NCBI GenBank assembly: GCA_047614125.1
Contig: JBLHHI010000002.1
Location: forward strand, 1 to 59,049
Length of the DNA: 59,049 bases
DNA from: Bacteroidia bacterium
Lineage (GTDB): Bacteria > Bacteroidota > Bacteroidia > NS11-12g > UBA9320
Direction of reading: 5' to 3'
A program made the translations under genes and the position numbers. Under the pieces are notes generated by a model that saw only the letters and a list, made by a program, of their open reading frames with translations, had not been told where the DNA came from and did no database searches. Shown in pieces: positions 11,111-42,131 of the stretch (position 1 is its first letter; every line of letters begins with the position of its first letter).

Positions 11111-12493
11111 TTAATCAAAAATCTTACCCGGATTCATAATGCCGTTTGGATCAAAAACGGCCTTAATTCCTCTAAACAAAGTAAAATGAGCATCTTTCAT
11201 TACTTCGTTCATAAAACCTTTTTGCACATAGCCAATGCCATGTTCACCGCTAATGGTTCCACCCAAACGCTTACACAGCTGAAATATCTTGCGTATGCCT
11301 TGATCCAAATGTTCCCCGTTCCAAGCTTCATCCGACATATTGTTCTTCAAAATGTTCACATGCAAATTACCATCTCCGGCGTGTCCATAACAAACCGACT
11401 CAAAACCATACTCTGCTCCTATTTCCTTAACTCCAGCCATTAGCTCGGGCAGAGAAGCTCTTTTTACTACCGTATCTTCTTCTTTGTAAATGGAATGCGC
11501 CTTAACAATTTCACCAATGCTTTTGCGAAGTTTCCACCAGCTTTCCTTTTGTGCCGAAGTATCTCCAAAACGTACATCCAAAACATTATAATCTTCTAAA
11601 ATGCCGTTAATGAGCTCAGCATCAGCGAACAATAAATCCATATTGTTGCCATCTAATTCTATTAATAAGCTGGCTTCCGAATCAATTGGCATTGGATGTG
11701 GAAGGTTGAGCATTTCAGCCGCCAACTCAATTCCTTTGCGTTCCATGAGCTCGAGTCCTGAAGGTACTACCCCACTTTTCATCACTTCCGATACTGCCTT
11801 GCATGCATCGATGGCGTTCGAAAAGCTGGCCCAAAGCAGTACATCACATTTGGGCTTTGCAATCAACTTAACCACAATCTTAGTTATAACACCCAACGTC
11901 CCCTCACTCCCAATCATTAGATGCGTGAGACTGTATCCTGTCGAATTTTTCAGTGTATCAGAGCCCGTCCAAATTACCTCACCATTTGGCAAAACCACTT
12001 CTAGATTTAATATGTAGTCTCTTGTTACTCCATATTTTACGGCTTTGGGTCCACCACTGTTATGTGCAACATTTCCACCCAAAAAACAAGAGCCTCTGCT
12101 GGCTGGGTCTGGAGGATAAAACAAGCCCAGAAGCTCCACCTCATTGCGGAATACTTCGTTTATTACTCCAGGTTCCACAACTGCTTGAAGATTATCAACG
12201 TCAACTTTTAAGATTTTATCAAAGGCTTCCATACTCAATGAAATGCCTCCAGAAATGGGCAAACAAGCTCCGCTCAACCCGGTACCTGCACCTCTTGGAC
12301 TGACTGGTATTTTGTTTGCGTTGCAAAATTTGAGAATGCTGGAAACATCTTGAACCGATTTGGGTATTACAACCACGTCGGGCTTGAAAATCAAATCTTC
12401 CGTTTGATCCTGCCCATATTTAAGCAGCGAAGCATCGTCCTCATAAATGAGGTCTCGGTCGATAATAGCAGAAAGCTGAGTTTTTAGATTCAA
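11111..12493 (-). CDS. FAD-linked oxidase (GlcD / D-lactate dehydrogenase family)
   Basis: 460-aa ORF with a TTG start. N-terminal PCMH-type FAD-binding region (VVIPKSVQDVSSILKFCNANKIPVSPRGAGTGLSGA). C-terminal FAD-oxidase region (GHAGDGNLHVNI, SGEHGIGYVQKGF). Confidence 0.8.
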   Translation of the reverse strand: MNLKTQLSAIIDRDLIYEDDASLLKYGQDQTEDLIFKPDVVVIPKSVQDVSSILKFCNANKIPVSPRGAGTGLSGACLPISGGISLSMEAFDKILKVDVDNLQAVVEPGVINEVFRNEVELLGLFYPPDPASRGSCFLGGNVAHNSGGPKAVKYGVTRDYILNLEVVLPNGEVIWTGSDTLKNSTGYSLTHLMIGSEGTLGVITKIVVKLIAKPKCDVLLWASFSNAIDACKAVSEVMKSGVVPSGLELMERKGIELAAEMLNLPHPMPIDSEASLLIELDGNNMDLLFADAELINGILEDYNVLDVRFGDTSAQKESWWKLRKSIGEIVKAHSIYKEEDTVVKRASLPELMAGVKEIGAEYGFESVCYGHAGDGNLHVNILKNNMSDEAWNGEHLDQGIRKIFQLCKRLGGTISGEHGIGYVQKGFMNEVMKDAHFTLFRGIKAVFDPNGIMNPGKIFD

Positions 12494-12571
12494 AGTGATT
12501 GTACTTTAGACCAACGAAGTAATGAAAGATGGCCAACATTTTTCTTATTATTGAAGCGAAATTTGAAATCA

Positions 12572-14758
12572 ATGAAAAAAGTATATACATTATCAATTTT
12601 ACTCCTGACTTCATGCATGGCATTTGCCGATGCACGTGTACATATTAGTTTGGAAGATATTTGGAGCAAAAGAATCTTTAATCCAACAACCATAAGTGGT
12701 TTTACCAACTTAAACGACGGAACGAGCTACTGCAAGTTGGAACAGGATGAAAACAAAAATTCAGTAGTTAATATCTATAACTATGCTTCGGGCGAAAAAA
12801 CGGGTTTGCTTATTGATGGAGCTGCCATTGCCAAAATAAATGGATTCAAGAGTTTTGGATTCGGTTCTTTCGAGCTGTCAGCCGATGAACAAGTCGCAAT
12901 TATTCCCACAGCCGTTGAAGGCATTTATCGGCACTCAACCCGATCGTTGGTATACATTTGGGATCGCAAAACCAACAAGCTCACCTTGATAGATAAAGAC
13001 AAAGTGATGTATGCAACCTTAAACAAACATGCTACACACATCGCATATGTTAAAGCTAACAACCTCTATATAAGAAACTTAGTTAAAGGAAAAACCAAAC
13101 AAGTCACCAAGGATGGGAAGCATGGCTCCATTATCAATGGGGGAGTTGACTGGGTATATGAAGAAGAATTTTCGATGAGCAGAGGTTTTGAATGGAATGA
13201 GGATGGGACTAAAATTGCCTATTACCGATTTGATGAAACACGCGTAAAAATGTGGGACATGGAAATCTTTGGACAGCTGTACCCGTTTCACGATCAGTTT
13301 AAATATCCAAAAGCTGGAGAGCAGAATTCGGTTGTTGATGTGTACATCTGTGATTTGAAAGGAAAGAGCAAGAAGTTAGAATTGGGTTCAGAAAACGACC
13401 AATACTTGCCTAGAATTAAATGGACTAAAGATCCAAATTCGTTATCGGTACAACGTCTCAACCGATTGCAAAACCACCTTGAGTTACTCATTGTGGATGC
13501 CAGTTCTGGAAAATCGTTTGTTAGTTTGGATGAGCGCAACAACTACTATATTGATATTACCGATGATTTTATTTTTCTTGAAGATAAGCGACATTTTATC
13601 ATAAAAAGTGAACGCGAAGGATATTGGCATTTGTATATGCATAAGATTGAAGGCCCATTGGTATTCGAAATAACTCGAGGCAATTTCGAAGTTGACAAGT
13701 TGCTAGGCGTGGATGAGAAGAATCAAAAAGTGTATTTCACCTCAACCGAAAAATCGTCCATTGAAAGACATATTTACATGGCGGATATAGACGGTCGAAA
13801 CCGAAAGAGGATTACTAATAAAAATGGCAATCACGATGCGGTTTTTAGCAAGGACTTTTCTTTGTTTTTACACACATACTCCACTGTTAATGAGTCTCTT
13901 AGATACACTATCAACGACAATACGGGCAAAGAAGTGCGCGTTATTGAAGACAATGCTGTTTTTAACAAAACATTGAGTCGGTACATAATGGGGGCCTTAG
14001 AATTTGAGAAAATAAAAGTTTCGACAGGTTCTGAGTTAAATGCCTATACCATTAAGCCCGCTAACTTCGACAGCAGTAAAACCTATCCTCTTTTAATGTT
14101 TGTTTACGGTGGTCCCGGTTCGCAACAGGTAGAAGACAAGTTTTTATGGAGCAATTATTTTTGGCATCAAATGCTGGCAAATCGGCACGGCTACATCATA
14201 GCATGTGTTGATAACCGAGGCACTGGTGGTAGAGGTGAAGAGTTCAAAAAATCAACATATTTGAAATTGGGTAAGTACGAAACGGAAGATCAAATTGCAG
14301 CTGCTCAATATTTTGGAAACTTGCCGTACATAGATGTAAGCAGAATTGGCATTTGGGGTTGGAGCTATGGTGGCTATATGAGCAGTTTGTGTATTGCTAA
14401 AGGAAATGAGACCTTTAAGATGGCTATTGCCGTTGCACCAGTTACCAACTGGCGTTATTACGACAACATTTATACGGAGCGATTCATGCGTACCCCTGCA
14501 GAAAATGCTGGTGGGTATGATGATAATTCTCCCATTAATCATGTTGATAAAATTAAAGGTAATTACCTGATTGTTCACGGATTAGCAGATGATAACGTTC
14601 ATTTCCAAAATACGGCTGAGATGATTAACAGCATGGTTAACAACAACGTCTCCTTTGATTCTGAAATCTATCCAAACAAAAACCACGGAATTTATGGTGG
14701 CAACACTCGATTGCACTTGTTTACCAAGATGACGAATTACATTTTGGAGAATTTGTAA
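12572..14758 (+). CDS. dipeptidyl-peptidase IV (S9B prolyl oligopeptidase family)
   Basis: The ORF is trimmed to the ATG at 12572, giving the signal MKKVYTLSILLLTSCMAFA. It has an N-terminal beta-propeller-type region. The catalytic triad context is GWSYGGY (Ser), GLADDNVHF (Asp) and NKNHGI (His). Confidence 0.85.
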   Translation: MKKVYTLSILLLTSCMAFADARVHISLEDIWSKRIFNPTTISGFTNLNDGTSYCKLEQDENKNSVVNIYNYASGEKTGLLIDGAAIAKINGFKSFGFGSFELSADEQVAIIPTAVEGIYRHSTRSLVYIWDRKTNKLTLIDKDKVMYATLNKHATHIAYVKANNLYIRNLVKGKTKQVTKDGKHGSIINGGVDWVYEEEFSMSRGFEWNEDGTKIAYYRFDETRVKMWDMEIFGQLYPFHDQFKYPKAGEQNSVVDVYICDLKGKSKKLELGSENDQYLPRIKWTKDPNSLSVQRLNRLQNHLELLIVDASSGKSFVSLDERNNYYIDITDDFIFLEDKRHFIIKSEREGYWHLYMHKIEGPLVFEITRGNFEVDKLLGVDEKNQKVYFTSTEKSSIERHIYMADIDGRNRKRITNKNGNHDAVFSKDFSLFLHTYSTVNESLRYTINDNTGKEVRVIEDNAVFNKTLSRYIMGALEFEKIKVSTGSELNAYTIKPANFDSSKTYPLLMFVYGGPGSQQVEDKFLWSNYFWHQMLANRHGYIIACVDNRGTGGRGEEFKKSTYLKLGKYETEDQIAAAQYFGNLPYIDVSRIGIWGWSYGGYMSSLCIAKGNETFKMAIAVAPVTNWRYYDNIYTERFMRTPAENAGGYDDNSPINHVDKIKGNYLIVHGLADDNVHFQNTAEMINSMVNNNVSFDSEIYPNKNHGIYGGNTRLHLFTKMTNYILENL

Positions 14759-20750: not shown

Positions 20751-22034
20751 ATGATACAGGCTCCTAAAATTACTTTAATCGGGTTGGGATATGTTGGCCT
20801 TCCTTTGGCAGTTGAATTTTCGAAGAAATTTCCGGTAGTCGGCTTCGACATTAACCCAGACCGAATTGCACAATTAAATCAGGGTGAGGACAAGACACTT
20901 GAAGTAGATTCGGAACACTTAAAAAGTGTTTTGGTTAAATCACATTCGGGTGGATTGGGACTCATCTGTTCCAACGAGTTGGACGCTATTCAAGATTCGA
21001 ATGTCTACATTATTACCGTTCCAACGCCGGTTGATCAATTTCATAAACCGGATTTAACGCCGCTCATTAAGGCCAGCGAAACCGTAGGCAAAGTTTTAAC
21101 CAAGGGAGACGTTGTGATTTATGAATCAACGGTTTATCCGGGTGCTACGGAAGAAGACTGCATTCCAATTTTAGAAAAAGTAAGTGGATTTACGTACAAC
21201 GTCGATTTTTTTGCTGGATATTCGCCGGAGCGAATCAATCCGGGCGACAAAGAGCATACGGTTACTAAAATCAAGAAGGTTACGAGTGGTTCAACACCCG
21301 AAGCCGGACAATTTGTTAACAATTTATATGCTTCCATCATCGTTGCCGGTACGCACCTTGCTCCTACCATTCGAGTTGCAGAAGCCGCCAAAGTAATTGA
21401 AAATAGTCAGCGCGATATAAACATTGCCTTTGTAAACGAACTGGCAAAGATTTTTAATCGCATGGACATCGATACGCATGCCGTACTGGAAGCTGCCGGA
21501 ACCAAATGGAACTTTTTAGCATTTAAACCCGGATTAGTGGGCGGGCATTGCATTGGCGTTGACCCATACTACTTGGCTCAAAAAGCCGAGCAAGTGGGGT
21601 ATCACCCCGAAATCATTTTGGCTGGTAGGCGATTAAACGACAGCATGGGTGGATATGTGGCATCTGAAACGGTTAAACTCATGATCAAAAAGGGTATTAC
21701 CATCAAAGACTCAAAAGTTTTGATGTTGGGAATAACATTCAAAGAGAATTGTCCGGATATACGCAATACGCGTGCCATCGACATCTATGAGGAACTTACC
21801 GACTATGGACTAATTGTGGATGTTTATGACCCATGGGCATCGGCAACGGAAGTAAAACACGAATACAATTTAGACATGTTGCCGAACAAACCAAATGCCC
21901 TTGATTATCAATGTATTATACTTGCAGTAGCCCACAAAGAATTTGCTGAATTTCCACTTGTGAAATCTGAAACTCGCGTGATATACGATGTTAAAGCAAT
22001 ACTGGATCGCTCGCAAGTGGATGGGCGGTTGTAA
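20751..22034 (+). CDS. nucleotide-sugar 6-dehydrogenase, TviB/WbpO-like (UDP-N-acetylhexosamine dehydrogenase type)
   Basis: Rossmann motif [10 protein letters not shown], catalytic Cys context [13 protein letters not shown], 427 aa. The overall N-terminal pattern ([21 protein letters not shown]) is as I recall for the TviB/WbpO/CapL subgroup. Confidence 0.75.
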
Positions 22035-22076: not shown

Positions 22077-23126
22077 ATGAAGGTATTAGTTACTGGTACA
22101 GCAGGATTCATAGGGTTTCATGTGGCAAACCGTTTGATTAAAGAAGGGTATGATGTGGTTGGTCTTGATTCCATAAATGACTACTATGATGTAGACTTAA
22201 AGCTGAATCGACTAAAAAACGCTGGTATTGACGTTCTTCCGGTGGTTTGGAATGAAATATTAGAAAGTTCATTGCATCCCAATTATCGCTTCATCCGAAT
22301 GAAGATGGAAGACAAAACGGCGATGAATGAGCTGTTTGAGCGAGAAAAATTTGATGTAGTGATCAACTTGGCAGCACAAGCTGGGGTTCGTTTTTCACTC
22401 ACAAATCCACATGCGTATTTAGAAAGCAATATGTTGGGATTCTTAAACATCTTAGAAGCCAGCCGCTATTCAGAAGTAAAACATTTAATTTATGCATCCA
22501 GTTCTTCGGTCTACGGATTAAACACGAATGTTCCTTTTTCTGTGCAAGAATCTGTTGATCATCCAATTAGCTTATACGCCGCAAGCAAAAAGAGCAACGA
22601 ATTAATGGCACATACCTACAGTCATTTGTTTGGCCTACCAACAACAGGACTTCGGTTCTTTACAGTTTATGGTCCGTGGGGAAGACCCGATATGGCCTTG
22701 TTCATTTTTGCCAAAGCCATGTTGGCCGACGAAGAATTTGAAGTATACAACTACGGCGATATGAGTCGAGATTTTACGTACATCGACGACATCGTGGAAA
22801 GCATAAAACGCTTAATACCCAAGGCACCTAAACCCAATCCAAACTACGATCATTCCAAGCCAAACCCCGCTGAAAGTTCAGCGCCTTATCAGTTATTTAA
22901 CATTGGCAACAACAGTCCCGTCTCCTTAATGGAGTTTATTGAGGCCATCGAAAAAAGCTTGGGAAAGAAAGGACGCCGAAAAATGATGCCCTTGCAAGCG
23001 GGAGATGTAACCAAAACCTATGCTCAAGTGCAAAGCTTGTTCGATTACGTCGATTTCAAACCAAATACGAAAATTGAAGACGGCATTGAACAATTTATGA
23101 AATGGTATAAAAATTATTATAAATAA
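22077..23126 (+). CDS. NAD-dependent nucleotide-sugar (uronate) 4-epimerase, TviC/CapI-like extended SDR
   Basis: GTAGFIGFH Rossmann motif, SSSSVYG, YAASK (YxxxK). The N-terminal pattern GLDSINDYYDVDLKLNRL is typical of UDP-glucuronate / GlcNAcA 4-epimerases. Confidence 0.7.
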   Translation: MKVLVTGTAGFIGFHVANRLIKEGYDVVGLDSINDYYDVDLKLNRLKNAGIDVLPVVWNEILESSLHPNYRFIRMKMEDKTAMNELFEREKFDVVINLAAQAGVRFSLTNPHAYLESNMLGFLNILEASRYSEVKHLIYASSSSVYGLNTNVPFSVQESVDHPISLYAASKKSNELMAHTYSHLFGLPTTGLRFFTVYGPWGRPDMALFIFAKAMLADEEFEVYNYGDMSRDFTYIDDIVESIKRLIPKAPKPNPNYDHSKPNPAESSAPYQLFNIGNNSPVSLMEFIEAIEKSLGKKGRRKMMPLQAGDVTKTYAQVQSLFDYVDFKPNTKIEDGIEQFMKWYKNYYK

Positions 23127-23129
23127 AAC

Positions 23130-24128
23130 ATGAATTCACTCAAAAATTCAAAAATATTAGTCATCGGTGGAGCCGGTTTTATTGGCGGCTTTGTAGTATC
23201 TGAACTTCTTAAGTACCCCGTTAAAGAAGTTATTATATACGACAACTTCGCAAGAGGCAAGATGGAAAACATAGAAGCCTCGCTTCAAGATGAACGGTGC
23301 AGCATTTATCCTTTTGGTGGTGATGTGCGCGAAATTGACATCTTAAATTCCGCGATGGAAGGTGTTGACTACGTCTTTCATTTAGCAGCCATGTGGTTGC
23401 TCCATTGTAAAGATTTTCCAAGAACCGCCTTTGATGTTAATATCAACGGCACCTTTAACGTTTTGGAAGCGTGCGTTAAAAACAAGGTTAAAAAACTCAT
23501 TTACTCTTCATCAGCGTCTGTTTATGGTGATGCGATTGAAGTACCAATGACCGAAGACCACCCATTCAATAATCGGAATTTTTACGGATCTACAAAAATC
23601 GCTGGCGAAACCATGTGCACAGCCTTTAATGACCGCTATGGTTTGGAGGTAATAGGTTTAAGATACATGAATGTGTATGGACCAGGCCAAGATCAACATG
23701 CTGTTTACAGTGGTGTTGTACCCATAATGCTCAACAAAATTGAAGCAAACGAACAGCCCGTAATTAACGGAGATGGCAGCCAAGCGTACGACTTTATTTA
23801 TGTTGAAGACGTTGCCCGCTGCAACATTGCTGCCTTAGAAAGCAGCACGAAGTTTGGGTATTACAATGTAGGAACAGAGGTGCAAACTACCATCAAACAA
23901 CTTTGCGACACCATTCTTTTGCTTAAGTCGTCGGAATTGGAAGTAAAATATGTTCCATATAGTGAAGATGACGCGCGACAGTTGGTGCAAAACCGAATTG
24001 GTTCTCGTAAAAAAGCAGAAGAGGAAATTGACTTTTTATACAAGTATTCGCTCGAACAAGGTCTTCAGAAACTAATTGATTGGCGCATTTCGATGGGTAT
24101 AGATCAAGCTGTTGAACAAGCCATTTAA
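23130..24128 (+). CDS. NAD-dependent epimerase/dehydratase (extended SDR)
   Basis: GGAGFIGG, SSSASVYG and YGSTK motifs. The specificity cannot be called from the sequence. Confidence 0.7.
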   Translation: MNSLKNSKILVIGGAGFIGGFVVSELLKYPVKEVIIYDNFARGKMENIEASLQDERCSIYPFGGDVREIDILNSAMEGVDYVFHLAAMWLLHCKDFPRTAFDVNINGTFNVLEACVKNKVKKLIYSSSASVYGDAIEVPMTEDHPFNNRNFYGSTKIAGETMCTAFNDRYGLEVIGLRYMNVYGPGQDQHAVYSGVVPIMLNKIEANEQPVINGDGSQAYDFIYVEDVARCNIAALESSTKFGYYNVGTEVQTTIKQLCDTILLLKSSELEVKYVPYSEDDARQLVQNRIGSRKKAEEEIDFLYKYSLEQGLQKLIDWRISMGIDQAVEQAI

Positions 24129-24169: not shown

Positions 24170-25309
24170 ATGGAAAAAAGAAACATACCCATTTCTTTAC
24201 CAGTAACTGGTGAAGAAGAATGGCATGCGGCCAAAGAACCATTAATGACCGGTTGGTTGACCAGCGGACCGAAGGTTCGAGAATTTGAAGAAAACTTTGC
24301 AAAACGACATGGTGTTAAACACGCACTTGCCGTAACCAGTGCCACCACTGCGCTACACTTAGCATGTGTTGCACTAAACGTTGGTCCTGGTGATGAGGTA
24401 ATTGTACCGGCGTTTACGTGGGTTTCTACCGCAAATGTAGTATTGTACTGTGGTGCCACTGTTGTGTTTGCGGATGTAGATCCAAAAACATTTAACATAG
24501 ATCCACAAGATCTTGCAAAACGCATTACGCCTAAAACCAAGGCCATTATTCCGGTACATCTATTTGGATTATGTGCCAACATGGATGACATTAAAAAAGT
24601 AGCTGGAAACATTCCACTTATTGAAGATGGAGCCTGTGCAGCAGGTGCGTCTTACAAGGGGGTTTCTGCCGGCGCTTTGGGCGATATTGGTTGCTTTTCC
24701 TTCCATCCAAGAAAATCTATAACCACCGGAGAAGGTGGAATGATTACCACCAACAACGACGCATTGGCAGAACACATGGGTATGCTTCGAAATCACGGAG
24801 CCTCCATATCTGAAGAGCAAAGACATCATGGCCCTCGGCCGTACATCTTGGCAGATTTCAATATGATGGGCTTCAACTACCGAATGACGGATATGCAAGG
24901 AGCCATCGGCGTGGTTCAATTGTCGAAATTGGATACCTTCATTAATGAGCGCGATAAGTGGGCCAATTTTTACAAGAAAGAATTGGCAGATTTGGATTGG
25001 CTTCAATTGCCAACTTTTGGTTCTGATTATAAACACGGATGGCAATCGTTTGTATGTTTAGTGGATGAAGAAAAGGCGCCAATGAGCCGAAACGACTTGA
25101 TGGAATACTTACAAGAGTGTGGTATTTCCACACGCCCTGGAACGCATGCCGTTCACATGCTTAACTTTTATAAGGATTTATACAACATCCAACCATCCGA
25201 CTATCCTGGGGCGCAAATTGCCAATGATCGATCGATGGCCATTCCATTACACAATCGAATGGTAGAGGAAGATTATCTATATGTAGTTGCTAAATTAAAG
25301 ATGATTTAG
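24170..25309 (+). CDS. DegT/DnrJ/EryC1/StrS-family PLP-dependent sugar aminotransferase
   Basis: The PLP-lysine context FSFHPRKSITTGEGG. The N-terminal LTSGPKVREFEENFA pattern is also present. Confidence 0.85.
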   Translation: MEKRNIPISLPVTGEEEWHAAKEPLMTGWLTSGPKVREFEENFAKRHGVKHALAVTSATTALHLACVALNVGPGDEVIVPAFTWVSTANVVLYCGATVVFADVDPKTFNIDPQDLAKRITPKTKAIIPVHLFGLCANMDDIKKVAGNIPLIEDGACAAGASYKGVSAGALGDIGCFSFHPRKSITTGEGGMITTNNDALAEHMGMLRNHGASISEEQRHHGPRPYILADFNMMGFNYRMTDMQGAIGVVQLSKLDTFINERDKWANFYKKELADLDWLQLPTFGSDYKHGWQSFVCLVDEEKAPMSRNDLMEYLQECGISTRPGTHAVHMLNFYKDLYNIQPSDYPGAQIANDRSMAIPLHNRMVEEDYLYVVAKLKMI

Positions 25310-25345: not shown

Positions 25346-27238
25346 ATGTGTGGTTTAGCCGGTATATATAATTTAGATGGGCAATCGGTTAATTCCGATG
25401 TGCTCGAAAAAATGAGCCTAAAGTTGGCGCATCGAGGACCGGACGATCACGATCTCTATGCTTCGGATGAAGTTGGGCTGGCGCATCGCAGACTTTCAAT
25501 CTTAGATTTAAGTGAAAAAGGGAAGCAACCTATGACATCTTCCAATGGGAAATGGATCGTTGTTTTTAATGGTTGCATTTACAATTACAAGGAGCTAAAG
25601 AAAGAACTTGAAAAAACAGGTATTCAATTCAAATCAACCACTGATACCGAAGTTATTTGCGAGGGTTTAAACGCATATGGACCGGATATTATAAAGCGAT
25701 TTAACGGAATGTTTGCTATTGCTGCATGGAATACGGAAGAAAAAACGTTGCTTTTGGCGCGTGATCGGTTTGGAGTAAAACCGCTTTACTACTTCTTTAA
25801 TGGTAAATCATTGCTGTTTGCATCCGAGATAAAAGCAATTATGGAACATCCCAGCTATAAAATTGGGGTGGATACAAATGCGCTAAACGAATATTTTTCG
25901 TTTCAAAACATGTTCACGTACCGTACGCTTTTTAAAGGAATTACGATGCTCCCTCCCGCAAATACGATAACCATGAATCGGGAAAGTGCTTTTGTAAAAC
26001 ATCAAAGTTGGTGGGATTACAATTACACGCAAACCGATGAAAACATGTCGTTTAAAGACGCGGTGAGTGAAACAAAGCGGCTTTTCGAACAAGCGGTTGA
26101 ACGTCAAATGGTGGCTGATGTTCCGGTGGGTTCATACTTATCTGGCGGAATGGACTCCGGTTCAATAACGGCTGTAGCTTCAAAGCACATACCTCGAATG
26201 ACCACTTTTACGTGTGGTTTCGATATGAGTGAGGTAACGGGAGTTGAAGCAAACTACGATGAGCGAAGAGATGCAGAACTCATGGCCAATCACTTTAAAA
26301 CCGAGCATTATGAGCAAATAATTAATGCAGGAGATTTGGGATGGTCGCTTCCTCGAGTGGTATACCATTTGGAAGACTTGCGCGTAGGCATGTCTTACCC
26401 CAACTATTACATCTCTCGACTTGCTAGCAAATTTGTAAAAGTTTGTTTGCAAGGCACAGGTGGCGATGAGCTCTTTGGTGGATATCCATGGCGCTACTAC
26501 CGCGTTTTCAAGTCGTTGAATCAAAAAGAATTTTTCGACAGCTATTATGGCTTTTGGCAACGATTGGTTCAAGACGAGGATAAGTCTTCTCTATTCCAAT
26601 CATCTGTACTAAATAAAGTGGATCTTCAAGAACCCAGAAAGGTTTTTGAGCGTGTTTTTACCTTTAACGAAACGTTAAACTACGCAAGTCCAGAAGACCA
26701 CATAAACAATTCATTGTACTTCGAAAGTAAGACCTTCCTTCCTGGACTCCTTCTAGTTGGAGACAAGCTTTCTATGGCCAATGGGTTGGAGGAGCGTTTC
26801 CCCTTCCTTGACAATGACCTAGTTGATTTTGCACAAACCATTCCGGTGAGGCACAAACTTGGTAATTTGGAGCAGCAGTTGCGTGTAGACGAGAATGAAT
26901 TTCGCAATAAACAGCGTGTTTATCAAGAATTTAACGACGGGAAAAATGTGCTTAGAAAGGCCATGAAGTCGTTCATACCTGAACGCATCATCAATCGAAA
27001 AAAACAAGGGTTTTCGGCTCCTGACGCAAGCTGGTACCGAGGTGAAAACTCGAACTATATAAAAGATCTTTTGTTGCAGAAGAACACAGTGAGTTCCGAG
27101 TTTATTTCACCCAAGTTTGTTGAAAAAATTGTAGATGAACACATCAATCAAAAGATTAACCATCGCCTTCTCATTTGGAGCTTAATGAACTTTGAATGGT
27201 GGTGTAGAATTTTCTTAAATGGCGAATCAGTTGAATAA
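25346..27238 (+). CDS. asnB: glutamine-hydrolysing asparagine-synthase-family amidotransferase
   Basis: Ntn nucleophile MCGLAGI (Cys2), RDRFGVKPLYY and the PP-loop SGGMDSGS. 630 aa. Confidence 0.85.
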   Translation: MCGLAGIYNLDGQSVNSDVLEKMSLKLAHRGPDDHDLYASDEVGLAHRRLSILDLSEKGKQPMTSSNGKWIVVFNGCIYNYKELKKELEKTGIQFKSTTDTEVICEGLNAYGPDIIKRFNGMFAIAAWNTEEKTLLLARDRFGVKPLYYFFNGKSLLFASEIKAIMEHPSYKIGVDTNALNEYFSFQNMFTYRTLFKGITMLPPANTITMNRESAFVKHQSWWDYNYTQTDENMSFKDAVSETKRLFEQAVERQMVADVPVGSYLSGGMDSGSITAVASKHIPRMTTFTCGFDMSEVTGVEANYDERRDAELMANHFKTEHYEQIINAGDLGWSLPRVVYHLEDLRVGMSYPNYYISRLASKFVKVCLQGTGGDELFGGYPWRYYRVFKSLNQKEFFDSYYGFWQRLVQDEDKSSLFQSSVLNKVDLQEPRKVFERVFTFNETLNYASPEDHINNSLYFESKTFLPGLLLVGDKLSMANGLEERFPFLDNDLVDFAQTIPVRHKLGNLEQQLRVDENEFRNKQRVYQEFNDGKNVLRKAMKSFIPERIINRKKQGFSAPDASWYRGENSNYIKDLLLQKNTVSSEFISPKFVEKIVDEHINQKINHRLLIWSLMNFEWWCRIFLNGESVE

Positions 27239-28265
27239 ACACTCGGTCGACTTTCGGAACAAACGTGCCCTTTCAATCTGCAAAAAGGCCGTTGACGAAC
27301 TTAAATTGGATTTATCTGGTCAAACCGTTCTAACCGAAATTGGATCAAATTTTTATTTATATCTCCCAGTAATTGCCCTTCTTGCCAATGCAAAAAAGGT
27401 AATTGCTTGGTGTAAAGACTCCTCTTATGGCTCGGCAAGTGATATCATTTCTGATTTCAAAGCGCTTGACCTATCTGCAAAACAAATGAATGCCATTGTT
27501 TTTCGAGCAAACGAATGCAGCCACTTAGATATTGAAGAAAGCACAATTATCACCAACAGCGAGGCTTTACGACCATTAAATGAAAACTTTCTGTCTAAAA
27601 TTAAAAACGACCAGACCGTTATTTCATTAATGTACGAGGCTTGGGAAATACGGAGAGAAGACATAGACATTGAGTACTGCAAACAAAAAGATCTAAGAGT
27701 AGCTGGAACCAATGAAAACCATCCGCTACTGCGGGTTTTTGAATACGGCGGTCCACTGGCTTGTAAAATGAGTTTTGAAGCTGGTTATGAGGTGTTTAGA
27801 AATAATATAATGGTTTGGTCGGATGATGAATTTGGCCAAGTTGCCACTAAGGCATTTAAGGCAATGGGCGCGAGCAGCGTTGTTAGCACCACCAATGTTG
27901 ATGCGTTTTATGAAGCATTGCCAGCACTCGACTTCATTTATTTGTGCAATTACCACGAGAAACGCGATTACATAAGCAATAAGACCGGTAGCGTCTTTAA
28001 TTTGACTCAAATTTTGGATAAAAATCCAAACCTAGGAATTGTTCATTTGTATGGCACGCTCAACAGTGAAAACTTGTTGGCTGCAGGACTCAATGTACAT
28101 CCAGCAAAAAATGGAAGGGCCATGTTCATGACAAACACACTGGGATACGCCGGTTTAAATCCAATCATATACCTTCAAGCTGCAGGACTTAAGGTGGCAG
28201 AAGAAATGATTGCTGGCAAATTCAGCACCATTAGTCAGCCCATATCTGGTTATTCAAAAAACTAG
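27219..28265 (+). CDS. hypothetical protein (no motif recognised)
   Basis: 348-aa ORF whose ATG overlaps the asnB 3' end by 20 nt and which ends 3 nt before the next start. It shows coding-like composition. No catalytic motif is recognisable by eye. Confidence 0.6.
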   Translation: MANQLNKHSVDFRNKRALSICKKAVDELKLDLSGQTVLTEIGSNFYLYLPVIALLANAKKVIAWCKDSSYGSASDIISDFKALDLSAKQMNAIVFRANECSHLDIEESTIITNSEALRPLNENFLSKIKNDQTVISLMYEAWEIRREDIDIEYCKQKDLRVAGTNENHPLLRVFEYGGPLACKMSFEAGYEVFRNNIMVWSDDEFGQVATKAFKAMGASSVVSTTNVDAFYEALPALDFIYLCNYHEKRDYISNKTGSVFNLTQILDKNPNLGIVHLYGTLNSENLLAAGLNVHPAKNGRAMFMTNTLGYAGLNPIIYLQAAGLKVAEEMIAGKFSTISQPISGYSKN

Positions 28266-28268
28266 TAC

Positions 28269-29216
28269 GTGAAACAGAATAAAATAAAAATAGCAATCAT
28301 TGGACGAAGCGAACTGCTTTTTAAAACAGCCATCTCGATAAAGGAAATGGGGTTTGAAATTCCATTAGTAGTGACGGCTAAGGAGGCACCTGAATACAAA
28401 GTAAAATCATCAGATTTTAAAAATTTTGCGGACAAATGCAATGCAACATTCATTCATACGGCCAAAATAAATAAAGCGGAATACATTGAGCAAATTAAAG
28501 CATGTGGCCCAATTGATATTGCTGTGAGCATAAATTACAACGGCATCATTGCTCAAGAAGTAATTGACTTGTTTCCTTTGGGAATTCTAAATGCTCATGG
28601 TGGAGACCTCCCTCGATACCGAGGAAACGCTTGCCAAGCTTGGGCCATAATTAATGGCGAAGAAAAAATAGGAATGTGCATTCATAAAATGCGTGGAGGT
28701 GAATTGGATAACGGTGACATTATTGCACGAGGTTATTATCAATTGTTGGATACCACTAGAATTGTCGAAGTGTATGATTGGATGGAAACCTGTATTCCGG
28801 AACTCATGAGCAGCGCCATTGATTCCATATCAAAGAATACCAATTTCATTCTAGATAAACAGTCGGAAGACCCCAAAGATACCTTACGATGTTATCCAAG
28901 AAACCAAGACGACGGAAAGATAGATTGGAACAAATCAGCAGTGGGAATTGATCGATTAATTCGAGCCTCTAGCGAACCTTTTAGTGGCGCATTTTGCTAT
29001 TTGGATGAGCAAAAGTTAACCATATGGAGGGCACAATTGGTTTATGACGAAGAGATTTATTTATCGTCGGTTGGTCAAGTTGCAGGAATTAGTTCAACCG
29101 GAATAGAAGTCATTACCTCATCTGGAAAATTACGGTTGTTAGAAATTGAGTACAACGGTGTGCGAACTACAGAACCTAACCAGATTATTAAATCAATACG
29201 GAAAAGACTAAAATGA
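28269..29216 (+). CDS. Fmt/ArnA-like formyltransferase (probable sugar N-formyltransferase)
   Basis: GTG start. It carries the formyl_trans_N signature with the catalytic N-x-H (ILNAHGGDLPRYRG) and Asp (ELDNGDII), plus a C-terminal Fmt-like domain. Its stop overlaps the next start (ATGA). Confidence 0.75.
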   Translation: MKQNKIKIAIIGRSELLFKTAISIKEMGFEIPLVVTAKEAPEYKVKSSDFKNFADKCNATFIHTAKINKAEYIEQIKACGPIDIAVSINYNGIIAQEVIDLFPLGILNAHGGDLPRYRGNACQAWAIINGEEKIGMCIHKMRGGELDNGDIIARGYYQLLDTTRIVEVYDWMETCIPELMSSAIDSISKNTNFILDKQSEDPKDTLRCYPRNQDDGKIDWNKSAVGIDRLIRASSEPFSGAFCYLDEQKLTIWRAQLVYDEEIYLSSVGQVAGISSTGIEVITSSGKLRLLEIEYNGVRTTEPNQIIKSIRKRLK

Positions 29217-30358
29217 GCAATAAACAAATTTGTACACGATGCATTTACGATACAAGCGTGCCGAAAATTACGTTCAACGCCGATGGCATCTGCAATTACT
29301 GTGAAATGTCTGACAATCTAAAAGCCCAATACCATACTGGTGACGACGAGGGAATGCGGATATGGTTGGCACATGTTGTAGACATTAAAAAAGCTGGAAA
29401 AGGTAAAAAATACGATTGTGTAATTGGTGTGAGCGGAGGTGTAGACTCTTCCTACATGCTGCACTATGCTATTGAACTTGGTTTGAGGCCTTTAGCTGTT
29501 CATTACGACAATACATGGAACTCGGCCATCGCAACTGAAAATATACGAAAAGTTACCGATGCTCTGAAGATCGATCTTTTTACTCATGTGGTTGATAATC
29601 GAGAATCGGATGATATTTTTAAGAGTTTCTTCTACGCTGGGGTTCCTGAAATAGATGCCCCCACCGATTTAGGTTTTGCAGAAACACATTTTCGTGCTGC
29701 GTCGAAATACGGAATTAAATATGTTTTGGAAGGTCATACCTTTATGCAAGAAGGCGTTTCGCCACTATCCACTATGTATTTTGATGGCAAATACATATCA
29801 TCCATTCATAAAAAGTTTGGGAAAAAGAAAATGAAAACCTATCCACTCATGAATTTCACTGCATTTATGAAATGGTCTATCATAAAGAATATCAAAAAGA
29901 TAAGACCATACTGGTACATTCATTACACCAAACAAGATGCAATTAAACTTTTGACCGAAAAATACGGTTGGGAATATTATGGAGGACATCATTTAGAAAA
30001 CCGCATGTCGGCCTTTATGCACAGCGTATATCTTCCAAATAAATTTAAAATCGATCAAAGAAACAATACGCTTTCAGCCTTGTCGCGAAATGGTTTTATG
30101 GAACGCGATGCAGCCTTGGTTGAATATGCCAAACCTCCCTTTGTTGAAAAGGAATTGGTGGAGTACTTCAAAAAACGATTAAACCTAACTGACGAAGAAT
30201 ACTCCAAGGTTATGACGGACGAACCGAAGTATTTCGAATCGTATCCAACCTATAAAAAACGTTTTGAGCGCTTGAGACCCTTGTTCTTCATTTTGGCCAA
30301 ATCAAATTTAGTACCAATGAGTTTCTATTTAAAATATTGCTTCCCAATTCAGAAATAA
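29213..30358 (+). CDS. N-acetyl-sugar amidotransferase (WbuX/WbpG/PseA-like PP-loop ATPase)
   Basis: N-terminal zinc ribbon CTRC...CNYC, then the PP-loop GVSGGVDSS. 381 aa. Confidence 0.8.
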   Translation: MSNKQICTRCIYDTSVPKITFNADGICNYCEMSDNLKAQYHTGDDEGMRIWLAHVVDIKKAGKGKKYDCVIGVSGGVDSSYMLHYAIELGLRPLAVHYDNTWNSAIATENIRKVTDALKIDLFTHVVDNRESDDIFKSFFYAGVPEIDAPTDLGFAETHFRAASKYGIKYVLEGHTFMQEGVSPLSTMYFDGKYISSIHKKFGKKKMKTYPLMNFTAFMKWSIIKNIKKIRPYWYIHYTKQDAIKLLTEKYGWEYYGGHHLENRMSAFMHSVYLPNKFKIDQRNNTLSALSRNGFMERDAALVEYAKPPFVEKELVEYFKKRLNLTDEEYSKVMTDEPKYFESYPTYKKRFERLRPLFFILAKSNLVPMSFYLKYCFPIQK

Positions 30359-30364
30359 AAATTC

Positions 30365-30982
30365 TTGAGCGTAATAACCATAATTGATTACGGTATGGGC
30401 AATTTGGGCTCCGTTCAAAACATGTTTAAATACATTGGTGTAAAAAGCCAAATTAGTTCTGACATAAAAGAAATAAAAGCAGCGGAGAAGTTGCTACTAC
30501 CGGGTGTTGGATCTTTTGATGCCGCAATGCAACGGTTAAACGATTTAGGATTGTCTGAACTACTCACTCAAAAAGTTGTTCAGGATAAAACACCAACACT
30601 AGGCATATGTTTAGGCATGCAGTTGTTAACAAATGGAAGCGATGAAGGCAAACTAGCTGGTTTGGGCTGGATTGATGCCTATACGCACAAGTTCGAATCT
30701 GAGCCCGGTCGAAAAATACCGCACATGGGTTGGAGTCAAGTACATATTAAAAAAGAATCTTTGCTTTCAAAATCCATTAGTGAAGAGTCTAAATTCTACT
30801 TCGTTCACTCGTACTATGTGAAGGTTAAAGATGAAGAAAATGCCATGTTAACCACTAAGTATGGTTCAACAATCTTCGATTCTGCGATTCAAAACGAACA
30901 TATTTTCGGTGCTCAATTTCACCCTGAGAAAAGTCATAAACACGGCATGGCATTGCTAAAAAGTTTCGCAGATTATCAATGA
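30365..30982 (+). CDS. HisH-like glutamine amidotransferase subunit (WbuY-like)
   Basis: TTG start giving MSVITIIDYGMGNLGSV, catalytic Cys GICLGMQLL, His/Glu FHPEKS. It overlaps the next gene (ATGA). Confidence 0.85.
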   Translation: MSVITIIDYGMGNLGSVQNMFKYIGVKSQISSDIKEIKAAEKLLLPGVGSFDAAMQRLNDLGLSELLTQKVVQDKTPTLGICLGMQLLTNGSDEGKLAGLGWIDAYTHKFESEPGRKIPHMGWSQVHIKKESLLSKSISEESKFYFVHSYYVKVKDEENAMLTTKYGSTIFDSAIQNEHIFGAQFHPEKSHKHGMALLKSFADYQ

Positions 30983-31746
30983 TCGCAGCTCGAATAATTC
31001 CTTGTTTACAATTGATTGACGATGCATTGGTAAAATGCGTTAAATTTAAAAACCCAAGCTACATCGGCGATCCCATTAACACAGTTCGCATTTTCAATGA
31101 ATTGGAAGTAGATGAGCTTTGCTTTTTAGATATACGAGCAACTAAAGAAAAAAGAGCACCCAACCTACAAATTCTACGCGACATTGCCAATGAGTGCTTT
31201 ATGCCGCTCTCGTATGGTGGTGGCGTAAAAGACGCAACGACTGCATTGAACATCTTATCGATCGGCTTTGAAAAAATAGTCTTTAACACGGCACTCTTCG
31301 AACATCCCGAGGTTATTACAGAATTGGCTAAAGTGGCTGGTAATCAAAGCGTTATTGCTTCAATCGATGTCAAGAAAAATCTTTGGGGCAAGTACGAAGT
31401 GTACTCGCACGATGGAAATAAGAAACAAAAACTTTCTGCCGTAGAATGCGCAAAGCGCGCGGAAAATTTGGGTGCCGGCGAGCTGTTAATTACCTCCATG
31501 AATAACGAAGGAAGCTGGCAAGGCTTTGATATTGACTTGTGCAAAATGATCAATGAATCCGTATCAATACCCGTTATCGCCAACGCTGGAGCAGGAAACA
31601 TCAACCACATTGGCGAAGTAATTTCTCAGGCCAATGTTTCGGGGGTTGCTTTGGGTAGTATGGTAGTTTATCAAAAACAAGGAATGGGTGTTTTAGTAAA
31701 CTTTCCAGATAAAAGTCTCTTAAAAGAAAAACTCAAAACTTTTTAA
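30979..31746 (+). CDS. HisF-like cyclase/synthase subunit (WbuZ-like)
   Basis: RIIPCLQL...DELCFLDI...GGGV...ADKV-type TIM-barrel pattern of HisF. Its location inside a polysaccharide locus next to the WbuX-like gene supports the call. Confidence 0.85.
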   Translation: MIAARIIPCLQLIDDALVKCVKFKNPSYIGDPINTVRIFNELEVDELCFLDIRATKEKRAPNLQILRDIANECFMPLSYGGGVKDATTALNILSIGFEKIVFNTALFEHPEVITELAKVAGNQSVIASIDVKKNLWGKYEVYSHDGNKKQKLSAVECAKRAENLGAGELLITSMNNEGSWQGFDIDLCKMINESVSIPVIANAGAGNINHIGEVISQANVSGVALGSMVVYQKQGMGVLVNFPDKSLLKEKLKTF

Positions 31747-41249: not shown

Positions 41250-42131
41250 ATGAATATAACAAAAAAGGTGGATCAAAAAGGTGCTAAGCTTATTGTAATA
41301 TGGGATTACGATACGCCTATTTCTAGAATAACCGCCACAAAACCTTATAAGTACCAGTTTGATAAATGCTTACAAGAAGAGAAAAATGTAGCAAAAATCT
41401 TGGAAGTGGCAGAGGAGTTTGAAGCGGAAATGACCTTTGCTGTGGTAGGTTATGGGGCAGAACAAAGTGTTTATCCGTTCGATGTTCGGCATGTAATCAA
41501 GCAAATTCGTGATAAAGGTCATGAGGTGGCTTCTCATTCTTGGAAGCACGAGTGGTTTCCTTACTTGACCAAATATCAAATTGAACATACCTTAAAGCGC
41601 AGCAAACTGATCATTGAGCAAACCATCGGAGAAGGTCATGTTACGGGCTTTGTTCCTCCACATGACAAGCCGTACAGTTGGTTGTCAAAATTTGCCTGGA
41701 GTAAGGGCGATCGGGCGCTTTACCCCTTCCACCCAGGTGCGGATATTGGATACATTGCAGGTGAATTAAATCGGCAAAATTACACTTGGTACCGCGTTCG
41801 ATTCAGAAGTATTTGGAATAAATTAGTAGATTGGGAAGGCATCAAACTCGAAAAGAGATTAACCCGTCCTTGGATTAAACACAAGGGAACCATATGCTTT
41901 AATGCCACCTACAATGGCTTCGACGAAAGAGCGCTGCAATTAATGGATCAGGCCGTTAAAACCAACGCGGTAATAGTTGTTGTTGGGCACCCAGCGGCAT
42001 TATCGTGGAAAGGGCCGGAAAGCATGGATTGTTTTCAAAAGTTGATGGAACATGCATCATCCTATAAGAAGGATGGAAAACTCGAATTCTTTACGGTTCA
42101 AGATTATATCAACGAATACATTAATCAATGA
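41250..42131 (+). CDS. polysaccharide deacetylase (CE4 / NodB homology)
   Basis: IWDYDTP (Asp-Asp-type motif 1), HEVASHSWKHEW (HxxxH metal motif) and VVVGHPAAL. Confidence 0.7.
   Translation: MNITKKVDQKGAKLIVIWDYDTPISRITATKPYKYQFDKCLQEEKNVAKILEVAEEFEAEMTFAVVGYGAEQSVYPFDVRHVIKQIRDKGHEVASHSWKHEWFPYLTKYQIEHTLKRSKLIIEQTIGEGHVTGFVPPHDKPYSWLSKFAWSKGDRALYPFHPGADIGYIAGELNRQNYTWYRVRFRSIWNKLVDWEGIKLEKRLTRPWIKHKGTICFNATYNGFDERALQLMDQAVKTNAVIVVVGHPAALSWKGPESMDCFQKLMEHASSYKKDGKLEFFTVQDYINEYINQ

Follow-up and report, generated by a model that had tools for sequence, protein, structure and literature searches.

We analysed a 59,049-nucleotide stretch of DNA from a Bacteroidia bacterium (contig JBLHHI010000002.1 of assembly GCA_047614125.1; the whole stretch is called the window below), in which a gene for an Fmt/ArnA-N-like putative sugar formyltransferase (Fmt) is followed by genes for a WbuX-type N-acetyl-sugar amidotransferase (NASAT), a HisH-like protein and a HisF-like protein. 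Comparison with related loci indicates that these four genes are most likely two independently mobile tailoring modules that stand at the end of one conserved nucleotide-sugar cassette, whose core encodes a short-chain dehydrogenase/reductase (SDR2), a DegT-family aminotransferase and an AsnB-type amidotransferase. We favour, with some reserve, the reading that the formamido and acetamidino groups they would generate are separate, carried by two nitrogens of a single residue or by two different residues. Fmt and WbuX would be neighbours because the two mobile modules were appended to the 3' end of the same cassette. The initial annotation had taken the tight coupling of the two genes as a sign that both enzymes act on the same nitrogen; this did not hold up, since Fmt is mostly found without WbuX, WbuX mostly stands behind an acetyltransferase, and unrelated genes of the locus also overlap by 4 nt.

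The four open reading frames were confirmed, all on the + strand, in a surface-polysaccharide locus of ~40 kb that runs on the same strand from Wzc to Wzx, Wzy, many glycosyltransferases (at least seven) and tailoring genes. Family profiles and alignments establish the identities of the genes and their catalytic motifs, and the comparison of loci establishes their modular distribution. Fmt (28269-29216; 315 aa, GTG start) has an N-terminal catalytic and a C-terminal Fmt-type domain, which match PF00551 (1.1e-19; 71.4 bits against 26.1) and PF02911 (2.1e-16; 60.3 against 21.1), both above the gathering score. Its closest solved structure is the ArnA formyltransferase domain (1.8e-25), and the N-x-H and Asp residues pointed out in the initial annotation are indeed retained: N108, H110 and D147 align with the catalytic N102, H104 and D140 of ArnA. 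A set of 31 homologues drawn from many phyla shows no change in this Asn-His-Asp triad or in the motif around it. Fmt scores far under the NCBIfam equivalog cut-offs for ArnA (144.6 against 777), PRK06988 (138 against 316) and fmt (121.7 against 201.5), and forms a separate lineage, neither ArnA nor tRNA Fmt. Another Fmt-like gene, 26% identical to the one in the window, lies on a different contig of the same genome; it can be the housekeeping gene for tRNA formylation, in which case the Fmt of the window would not be the housekeeping fmt.

The WbuX-type protein (29213-30358; 381 aa) scores 208.8 bits against the TIGR03573 cut-off of 203.2 over residues 5-334, and was recovered again in a whole-genome search; no protein of the control genomes scored above this cut-off. 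The NASAT family is defined by a tetracysteine motif, CxxCxn[GN]xCxxC, that forms a zinc site, and by the PP-loop SGGxDS (PMC10607449). Both are present in the window, as had been annotated: the Cys4 zinc motif reads C7-x2-C10 ... G25-I-C27-x2-C30 and the PP-loop, with the core SGGVDS, reads G72-V-S-G-G-V-D-S-S80. The four cysteines, G25, and S74, G75, G76, D78 and S79 of the PP-loop are invariant in 36 homologues. The solved NASAT of Legionella pneumophila (LpNASAT) matches this protein distantly, with an E-value of 2.4e-4 over 80 residues.

Downstream, the HisH-like class-I glutaminase subunit (30365-30982; 205 aa, TTG start) matches PF00117 and TIGR01855 (240.7 bits against a cut-off of 105.4), and shows the Cys-His-Glu triad of a glutaminase in its motifs GICLGMQ and FHPE. 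The HisF-like protein (30979-31746; 255 aa) belongs to the AglZ/HisF2 family (NF038364, 335.2 bits against 310) and scores 211.5 with hisF, under the cut-off of 294.55. When aligned to HisF, this (beta/alpha)8 barrel has Gln at position 11 in place of the cyclase Asp and retains R5, E46, K99 and E168, equivalent to R5, E46, K99 and E167 of HisF, which form the ammonia gate of HisF; the protein is a presumed ammonia conduit. A search of the source assembly, 94% complete, gave no hisF that passes the family cut-off, and the gene described here is its sole strong HisF-like gene; the organism may lack histidine synthesis, or its hisF may lie in the unassembled part. These results support the family assignments of the initial annotation and the general role proposed for the WbuX/HisH/HisF triad, which would be ATP-dependent amidine formation with ammonia derived from glutamine.

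The gene overlaps were read directly in the sequence. An ATGA at 29213-29216 joins the stop of Fmt to the start of WbuX, as had been described, and a second at 30979-30982 joins HisH and HisF. The HisH/HisF pair therefore overlaps as annotated, but it does not overlap WbuX: WbuX ends at 30358 and HisH starts 6 nt past its stop, at 30365. Overlaps of 4 nt recur elsewhere in the locus, between a flippase and a glycosyltransferase gene (34363) and at 42128, 48860 and 57831. Since they join unrelated genes, the overlap between Fmt and WbuX carries no special weight, and we no longer consider translational coupling as evidence for a shared nitrogen.

To place the four genes in context, ~240 loci were compared in three sets of 80, taken from contigs of one genome per species and chosen by the presence of Fmt, WbuX or the core SDR2. 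Every open reading frame was compared with the proteins of the window, and representatives were checked against Pfam. Counts are given without a statistical test, related genomes being non-independent. Orthologues of Fmt (45-63% identity) are found in 79 loci including the window, in Bacteroidota, Ignavibacteriota, Verrucomicrobiota, Campylobacterota, Pseudomonadota and other phyla, where their neighbours (in L001-L080) are SDR, aminotransferase, AsnB, deacetylase and other sugar-tailoring genes. The WbuX triad adjoins the orthologous Fmt in only 6 of the 78 loci besides the window (L002, L004, L017, L075, L035 and L036), and the other 72 have no neighbouring WbuX. As seen from the other side, 6 of 97 close WbuX genes stand behind an Fmt of this type. 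The pairing is thus neither obligate nor enriched.

Fmt has other, more constant companions. Directly upstream of it lies a WbmS-like deacetylase (PF22537) in 43 loci, and a homologue of Unk348, the 348-residue protein encoded before Fmt in the window, lies at this place or just upstream in 23 of the 78 other loci (24 with the window). The two kinds of partner are scattered over the Fmt tree and switch at least 14 times, which indicates a single orthologous group with two alternative partners. Deacetylase-type loci that also encode DegT usually have a further acyltransferase after AsnB (a second formyltransferase, a FemAB/GNAT protein or a hexapeptide protein). Three loci (L051, L061 and L079) consist of SDR2, AsnB, deacetylase and Fmt only, lacking both DegT and WbuX; with no DegT, the formyl group in these loci can only go onto an amine freed by de-N-acetylation. 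Fmt orthologues partnered with a deacetylase probably replace the C2 acetyl group by formyl. In Unk348-type loci DegT is present and no other acyltransferase is found. None of the loci compared that have the order Unk348-Fmt-WbuX came from a cultured strain.

WbuX shows a similar independence of Fmt. Its closest relatives (60-74% identity) nearly all stand behind the SDR-DegT-AsnB core, or behind a Gfo-SDR-DegT cassette without AsnB, and are followed by HisH and HisF; the commonest gene order is DegT-AsnB-acyltransferase-WbuX, and we refer to the acyltransferase position in this order as the slot. Among 97 non-redundant close WbuX genes (48-74% identity), ~55 are preceded by a short hexapeptide acetyltransferase, whose specificity for N or O is not decided by profiles, 20 by formyltransferases of other lineages (~260-280 aa and ~350 aa), 6 by the window-type Fmt, 2 by a FemAB-like protein and ~10 by no acyltransferase.

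In the SDR2-chosen sample, which is unbiased for the slot and yielded 54 informative loci, WbuX is present in 21. It occurs in 15 of the 21 loci with a hexapeptide acetyltransferase as first gene after AsnB and in all four with a short formyltransferase (19 of 25 together), compared with 1 of 10 for Unk348, 1 of 8 for FemAB and 0 of 11 for others; the single Unk348 locus with WbuX is the window's nearest relative. If anything, the window-type Fmt is depleted in WbuX loci. We also considered that the short formyltransferase lineage might be bound to WbuX, and dropped this idea: only 3 orthologues were found in 400 genomes of the phylum, WbuX adjoins one of these three, and L008 and L186 also carry the gene without WbuX.

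The sequence of WbuX does not follow the type of the acyltransferase before it, as seen on the tree, in swaps and in residues. On a WbuX tree of 77 tips, the partner changes between formyl and acetyl type at least 20 times. Two Campylobacter assemblies provide a one-gene swap directly before WbuX, with a formyltransferase (L106:9228-9998) in one and a hexapeptide acetyltransferase (L114:9389-9955) in the other, flanked on each side by ~5.8 kb of 93-95% DNA identity. The same swap pattern is seen in L110/L133 and in L125/L139, and these cases look like serotype-type variation of one N-acyl group. No column of the WbuX alignment separates formyl- from acetyltransferase-partnered genes. Columns 188, 266 and 341 were candidates for such residues and were rejected, since basal acetyltransferase-partnered lineages have them too, which marks them as phylogenetic signal. 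The only changes specific to the small clade of the window (window, L002 and L017) are T77V and L155F; residue 77 (29441-29443) lies in the PP-loop, SGGVDS, and is Thr in all 51 acetyltransferase-partnered relatives. The swaps and the lack of partner-specific residues suggest that WbuX either targets a group that the slot enzyme does not touch, or accepts both acyl groups.

Loci with an empty slot favour the first of these options. In L091, L094, L104 and L149, WbuX is present, with no core SDR2 or DegT orthologues seen in the fetched locus and no slot acyltransferase; WbuX directly follows AsnB in L091, L094 and L149, and AsnB is detected at 50% by tblastn in L104. The sister loci of L091 and L094 carry SDR2, DegT and a slot acyltransferase. 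Retention of WbuX where the slot is empty speaks for a target that is not the slot acyl group, with the N-acetyl at C2 as the simplest candidate.

The pathway that we infer, with its sugar, reaction order and regiochemistry, is as follows; the scaffold is deduced from the gene families. UDP-GlcNAc would be oxidised to a uronic acid, its C4 turned to an amine and its C6 amidated (by the TviB-like, SDR, DegT and AsnB proteins), which would yield UDP-2-acetamido-4-amino-2,4-dideoxy-hexuronamide as the scaffold. In the first module, Unk348 and Fmt would transfer a formyl group from N10-formyl-tetrahydrofolate onto a free sugar amine, whether produced by DegT or released by de-N-acetylation. In the second, WbuX would use ATP at its PP-loop to adenylate the carbonyl oxygen of an N-acyl group; HisH would hydrolyse glutamine, and the HisF-like barrel, in which one aspartate of the cyclase is missing, would channel the ammonia to WbuX, where it would displace AMP on the activated group to form the amidine. 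This chemistry of WbuX follows that of the PP-loop family and PMC10607449. The likeliest target of WbuX would be an acetamido group, and the simplest candidate is the N-acetyl at C2 that derives from UDP-GlcNAc. C2 acetamidino groups have been described on uronic acids and 6-deoxy sugars, namely L-GalNAmA, L-FucNAm and GalNAm3NAcA (PMC3210612).

Several points weigh against keeping the two groups apart. The cassette of the window encodes no acetyltransferase, and its sugar is assigned by family resemblance only. If Unk348 and Fmt swap the C2 acetyl for a formyl group, that sugar keeps no acetamido group for WbuX, and a clean separation follows only from the combination of Fmt acting on N4 and WbuX acting on N2. 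In 26 of the 97 loci, the gene directly before WbuX encodes a formyltransferase, which belongs to one of three lineages, and in L122 a slot formyltransferase is followed by a deacetylase and a long LpxD-like acyltransferase and then by WbuX, an arrangement that leaves no obvious acetamido group for WbuX. In addition, the function of the NASAT family is little known, and no member has a biochemically defined substrate (PMC10607449).

We retain as a tentative and rather unlikely alternative that Fmt and WbuX act on the same nitrogen: Fmt would formylate an amine, and WbuX would adenylate and amidate the resulting formamide, giving an N-formimidoyl group. With no acetyltransferase in the window, formyl may be the sole acyl group added, and if the slot supplies the substrate of WbuX, as the gene order suggests, the 26 loci with a formyltransferase in this position would all make formamidines. 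Such a product would likewise follow if Fmt fills the slot for the DegT-made amine and WbuX uses the slot acyl group. A parallel exists in Pseudomonas aeruginosa O5, where the target of WbpG is held to be the acetamido group that the pathway's own aminotransferase and acetyltransferase install. The occurrence of near-identical WbuX proteins behind formyl- and acetyltransferases fits a dual acceptance, formyl being the smaller group; yet WbuX has no partner-specific residues, and it persists in L091 and L094, which have neither the aminotransferase nor a slot acyltransferase. Should Unk348 replace a deacetylase, a WbuX acting at C2 would meet a formamide or need a second sugar pool, and the gene order of L122 points the same way. 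Against this stands the distribution of the formyltransferases: WbuX is missing beside the window-type Fmt in 72 of the 78 loci other than the window, the Unk348 cassette has WbuX in 1 of 10 loci of the SDR2-chosen sample, and the short formyltransferase is not tied to it (one of three orthologues; L008 and L186 lack it). A full-text literature search also returned no formamidino or formimidoyl glycan among the matches listed. We therefore doubt that formamidines are made in the window and in those related WbuX loci, about one in four, that have a formyltransferase in the slot. If they were, an N-formimidoyl amino-uronamide would be a glycan decoration not described so far and a new group for bacterial glycans, and one-gene formyl/acetyltransferase swaps before the same WbuX would toggle a surface antigen between formamidino and acetamidino forms.

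The preferred reading, in which the two groups are separate, has a special case that we also hold to be improbable and whose likelihood is counted within that of the general reading. Here the pathway would branch: Unk348 and Fmt would swap the C2 acetyl for formyl on one hexosaminuronamide pool, and WbuX would amidate the C2 acetyl of another, so that the repeat unit would hold two different residues. P. aeruginosa O6, where GalNAcAN stands beside GalNFmA, offers a parallel, and the at least seven glycosyltransferases of the locus would be consistent with it. The pairing of Fmt orthologues with a WbmS-like deacetylase in 43 loci, some of them without DegT, speaks for such a branch, as does the fact that Unk348 and the deacetylase precede the same two kinds of acyltransferase; L091 and L094, in which WbuX stands with AsnB without the SDR2/DegT/acyltransferase segment of their sister loci, point to the C2 site. 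However, the fold of Unk348 resembles dehydrogenases and S-adenosylhomocysteine (AdoHcy) hydrolase and is not a known deacetylase fold, one locus (L197) carries Unk348 and a WbmS-like gene together, and in Unk348-type loci no acyltransferase but Fmt is available for the amine made by DegT, which fits an Fmt that acts there.

It is, finally, very improbable that the Fmt-like protein is no sugar N-formyltransferase (being inactive, or using another acyl donor or a non-sugar substrate), in which case the module would tell nothing of formyl groups: its scores lie far below every NCBIfam equivalog cut-off and we know of no characterised member of its orthologous group, but its triad and motif do not vary among 31 homologues of many phyla, it sits among sugar-tailoring genes in L001-L080, and the other Fmt-like gene of the genome can serve tRNA formylation.

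The cassette upstream of the four genes lies on the same + strand. It opens with a TviB-like UDP-GlcNAc 6-dehydrogenase (20751-22034; NF011729 551 bits, cut-off 592; TIGR03026 389 bits), which would be the entry to the uronic-acid branch. Next comes SDR1 (22077-23126; PF01370 5e-52), an extended SDR outside the conserved core, for which the related loci gave cross-hits only. SDR2 (23130-24128) is an extended SDR closest to the UDP-GlcNAc 4-epimerases WbpP and WbgU (PDB 6dnt 1.5e-47, WbpP 1.7e-40). The conserved core begins with its gene, and most related loci encode a protein of 50-84% identity to it. DegT (24170-25309; PF01041 5.9e-118) appears to be an aminotransferase of the C4 type, with perosamine synthase (1.5e-75) and ArnB (4.5e-75) as its nearest solved relatives. 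The AsnB-type glutamine-dependent amidotransferase (25346-27238; TIGR01536 442.9 bits; GATase_7 and Asn_synthase domains), which presumably forms the uronamide, is conserved next to SDR2 and DegT, and these three genes are the core shared across related loci.

In L235:7838-9991, L240:7824-9967 and about a dozen other SDR2 loci, the SDR-DegT-AsnB core lies directly behind a Wzm/Wzt ABC exporter. The window uses Wzx/Wzy/Wzc and these relatives Wzm/Wzt, which indicates that the same sugar cassette serves both assembly routes. A gene of ~430 aa upstream of SDR2 in relatives was considered as a second amidotransferase and discarded, as it encodes the Wzt ATPase of this exporter. A different protein, of 429 aa and without NCBIfam match, is encoded in L235:16745-18034 directly before the HisH/HisF pair, in the usual place of WbuX; it could be an unrecognised type of amidotransferase.

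Unk348 (27219-28265, + strand) ends 3 nt before Fmt and is the usual upstream partner of this Fmt lineage. It has no Pfam or NCBIfam match. Its predicted fold is two-lobed and of the Rossmann type (predicted local distance difference test, pLDDT, 93), with a degenerate dinucleotide motif. An assignment of function from the fold was abandoned, the matches being generic (AdoHcy hydrolase, D-2-hydroxyacid dehydrogenases and DpaA, at template-modelling (TM) scores of 0.4-0.6). In the loci used for this comparison (window, L169, L208, L237, L197, L222, L122 and L150), Unk348 always precedes an N-acyltransferase. This is the window-type Fmt in some loci, and in others a GNAT or a long hexapeptide protein of the LpxD-like type (~300 aa); WbmS-like deacetylases likewise precede this Fmt and the long hexapeptide protein. 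These common successors make Unk348 a candidate stand-in for the deacetylase; the presence of both genes in L197 means that the two are not strictly interchangeable. In L150 the amidine module itself is interrupted: the genes of a WbmS-like deacetylase and of a long, LpxD-like hexapeptide acyltransferase (11148-12754) separate WbuX from HisH.

A gene for an S-adenosylmethionine (SAM) methyltransferase of ~320 aa often lies between the slot acyltransferase and WbuX (L084:2189-3154 and ~35 other loci), and is also found without WbuX. N-methylated acetimidoyl groups occur in Legionella, and by analogy N-methylation of an amidine or amine is a possibility for this enzyme.

Amidino and formamido groups alter the charge and antigenicity of bacterial surface sugars. 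The genes of the window belong to a widespread, uncharacterised tailoring system, present in hundreds of species of many phyla, in which the SDR-aminotransferase-AsnB core is fixed, the enzyme in the N-acyl slot can be swapped, and the amidine module may be present or absent. Its natural swap pairs are well suited for testing the real substrate of WbuX, and its loci give a first functional context for the Unk348 family.

The amidine module of the window resembles the WbuX/WbuY/WbuZ system of E. coli O145, which is linked to L-FucNAm, and LpNASAT (PDB 8WEX) in having a PP-loop, a Cys4 motif and HisH/HisF paralogues. It differs in that the triad is attached to a uronamide/4-aminotransferase cassette, whereas the O145-type system has the FnlABC genes instead; moreover, the WbuX clade of the window has Val in the PP-loop where its relatives have Thr, and LpNASAT is very distant. 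A second likeness is to WbpG/HisH2/HisF2 of P. aeruginosa O5 (ManNAc3NAmA) and AglX/Y/Z of Methanococcus maripaludis, where, as is proposed for the window, an amidotransferase and HisH/HisF proteins tailor an N-acyl diamino uronic acid. The HisF-like protein of the window falls in the AglZ/HisF2 family of these very systems, and in the archaeal sugar of M. maripaludis the C6 carboxyl is also amide-linked. Those pathways place the second amine at C3 through a Gfo/Idh/MocA oxidase, WbpE and WbpD, whereas the window encodes an SDR and a C4-type aminotransferase, and has a formyltransferase in place of the hexapeptide acetyltransferase.

Fmt shares its catalytic Asn-His-Asp with the ArnA domain and with the sugar N-formyltransferases WbtJ, VioF, WbkC, WlaRD and FdtF/QdtF, and the ArnB-like aminotransferase encoded upstream of it parallels the ArnB/ArnA pair. 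Unlike ArnA, it is free-standing, has an Fmt-type C-terminal domain, and is partnered with a deacetylase or Unk348 rather than with a decarboxylase. The Bordetella wbm locus, with the Pfam name of its WbmS-like deacetylase, and the GalNFmA of P. aeruginosa O6 suggest a tailoring by deacetylation followed by reacylation, and the 43 loci in which a WbmS-like deacetylase precedes Fmt are organised in a like manner. Three minimal loci of this kind have a 4-epimerase-like SDR, AsnB, deacetylase and Fmt, whereas the window has Unk348 where the WbmS-like gene would be. For the conversion of a formamide to a formamidine, as the single-nitrogen alternative would need, PurL sets a precedent by converting FGAR to FGAM with ATP and glutamine-derived ammonia; it differs from WbuX in its unrelated fold and ATP chemistry (PurM-type, ADP-forming), and its substrate is a ribotide and not a glycan.

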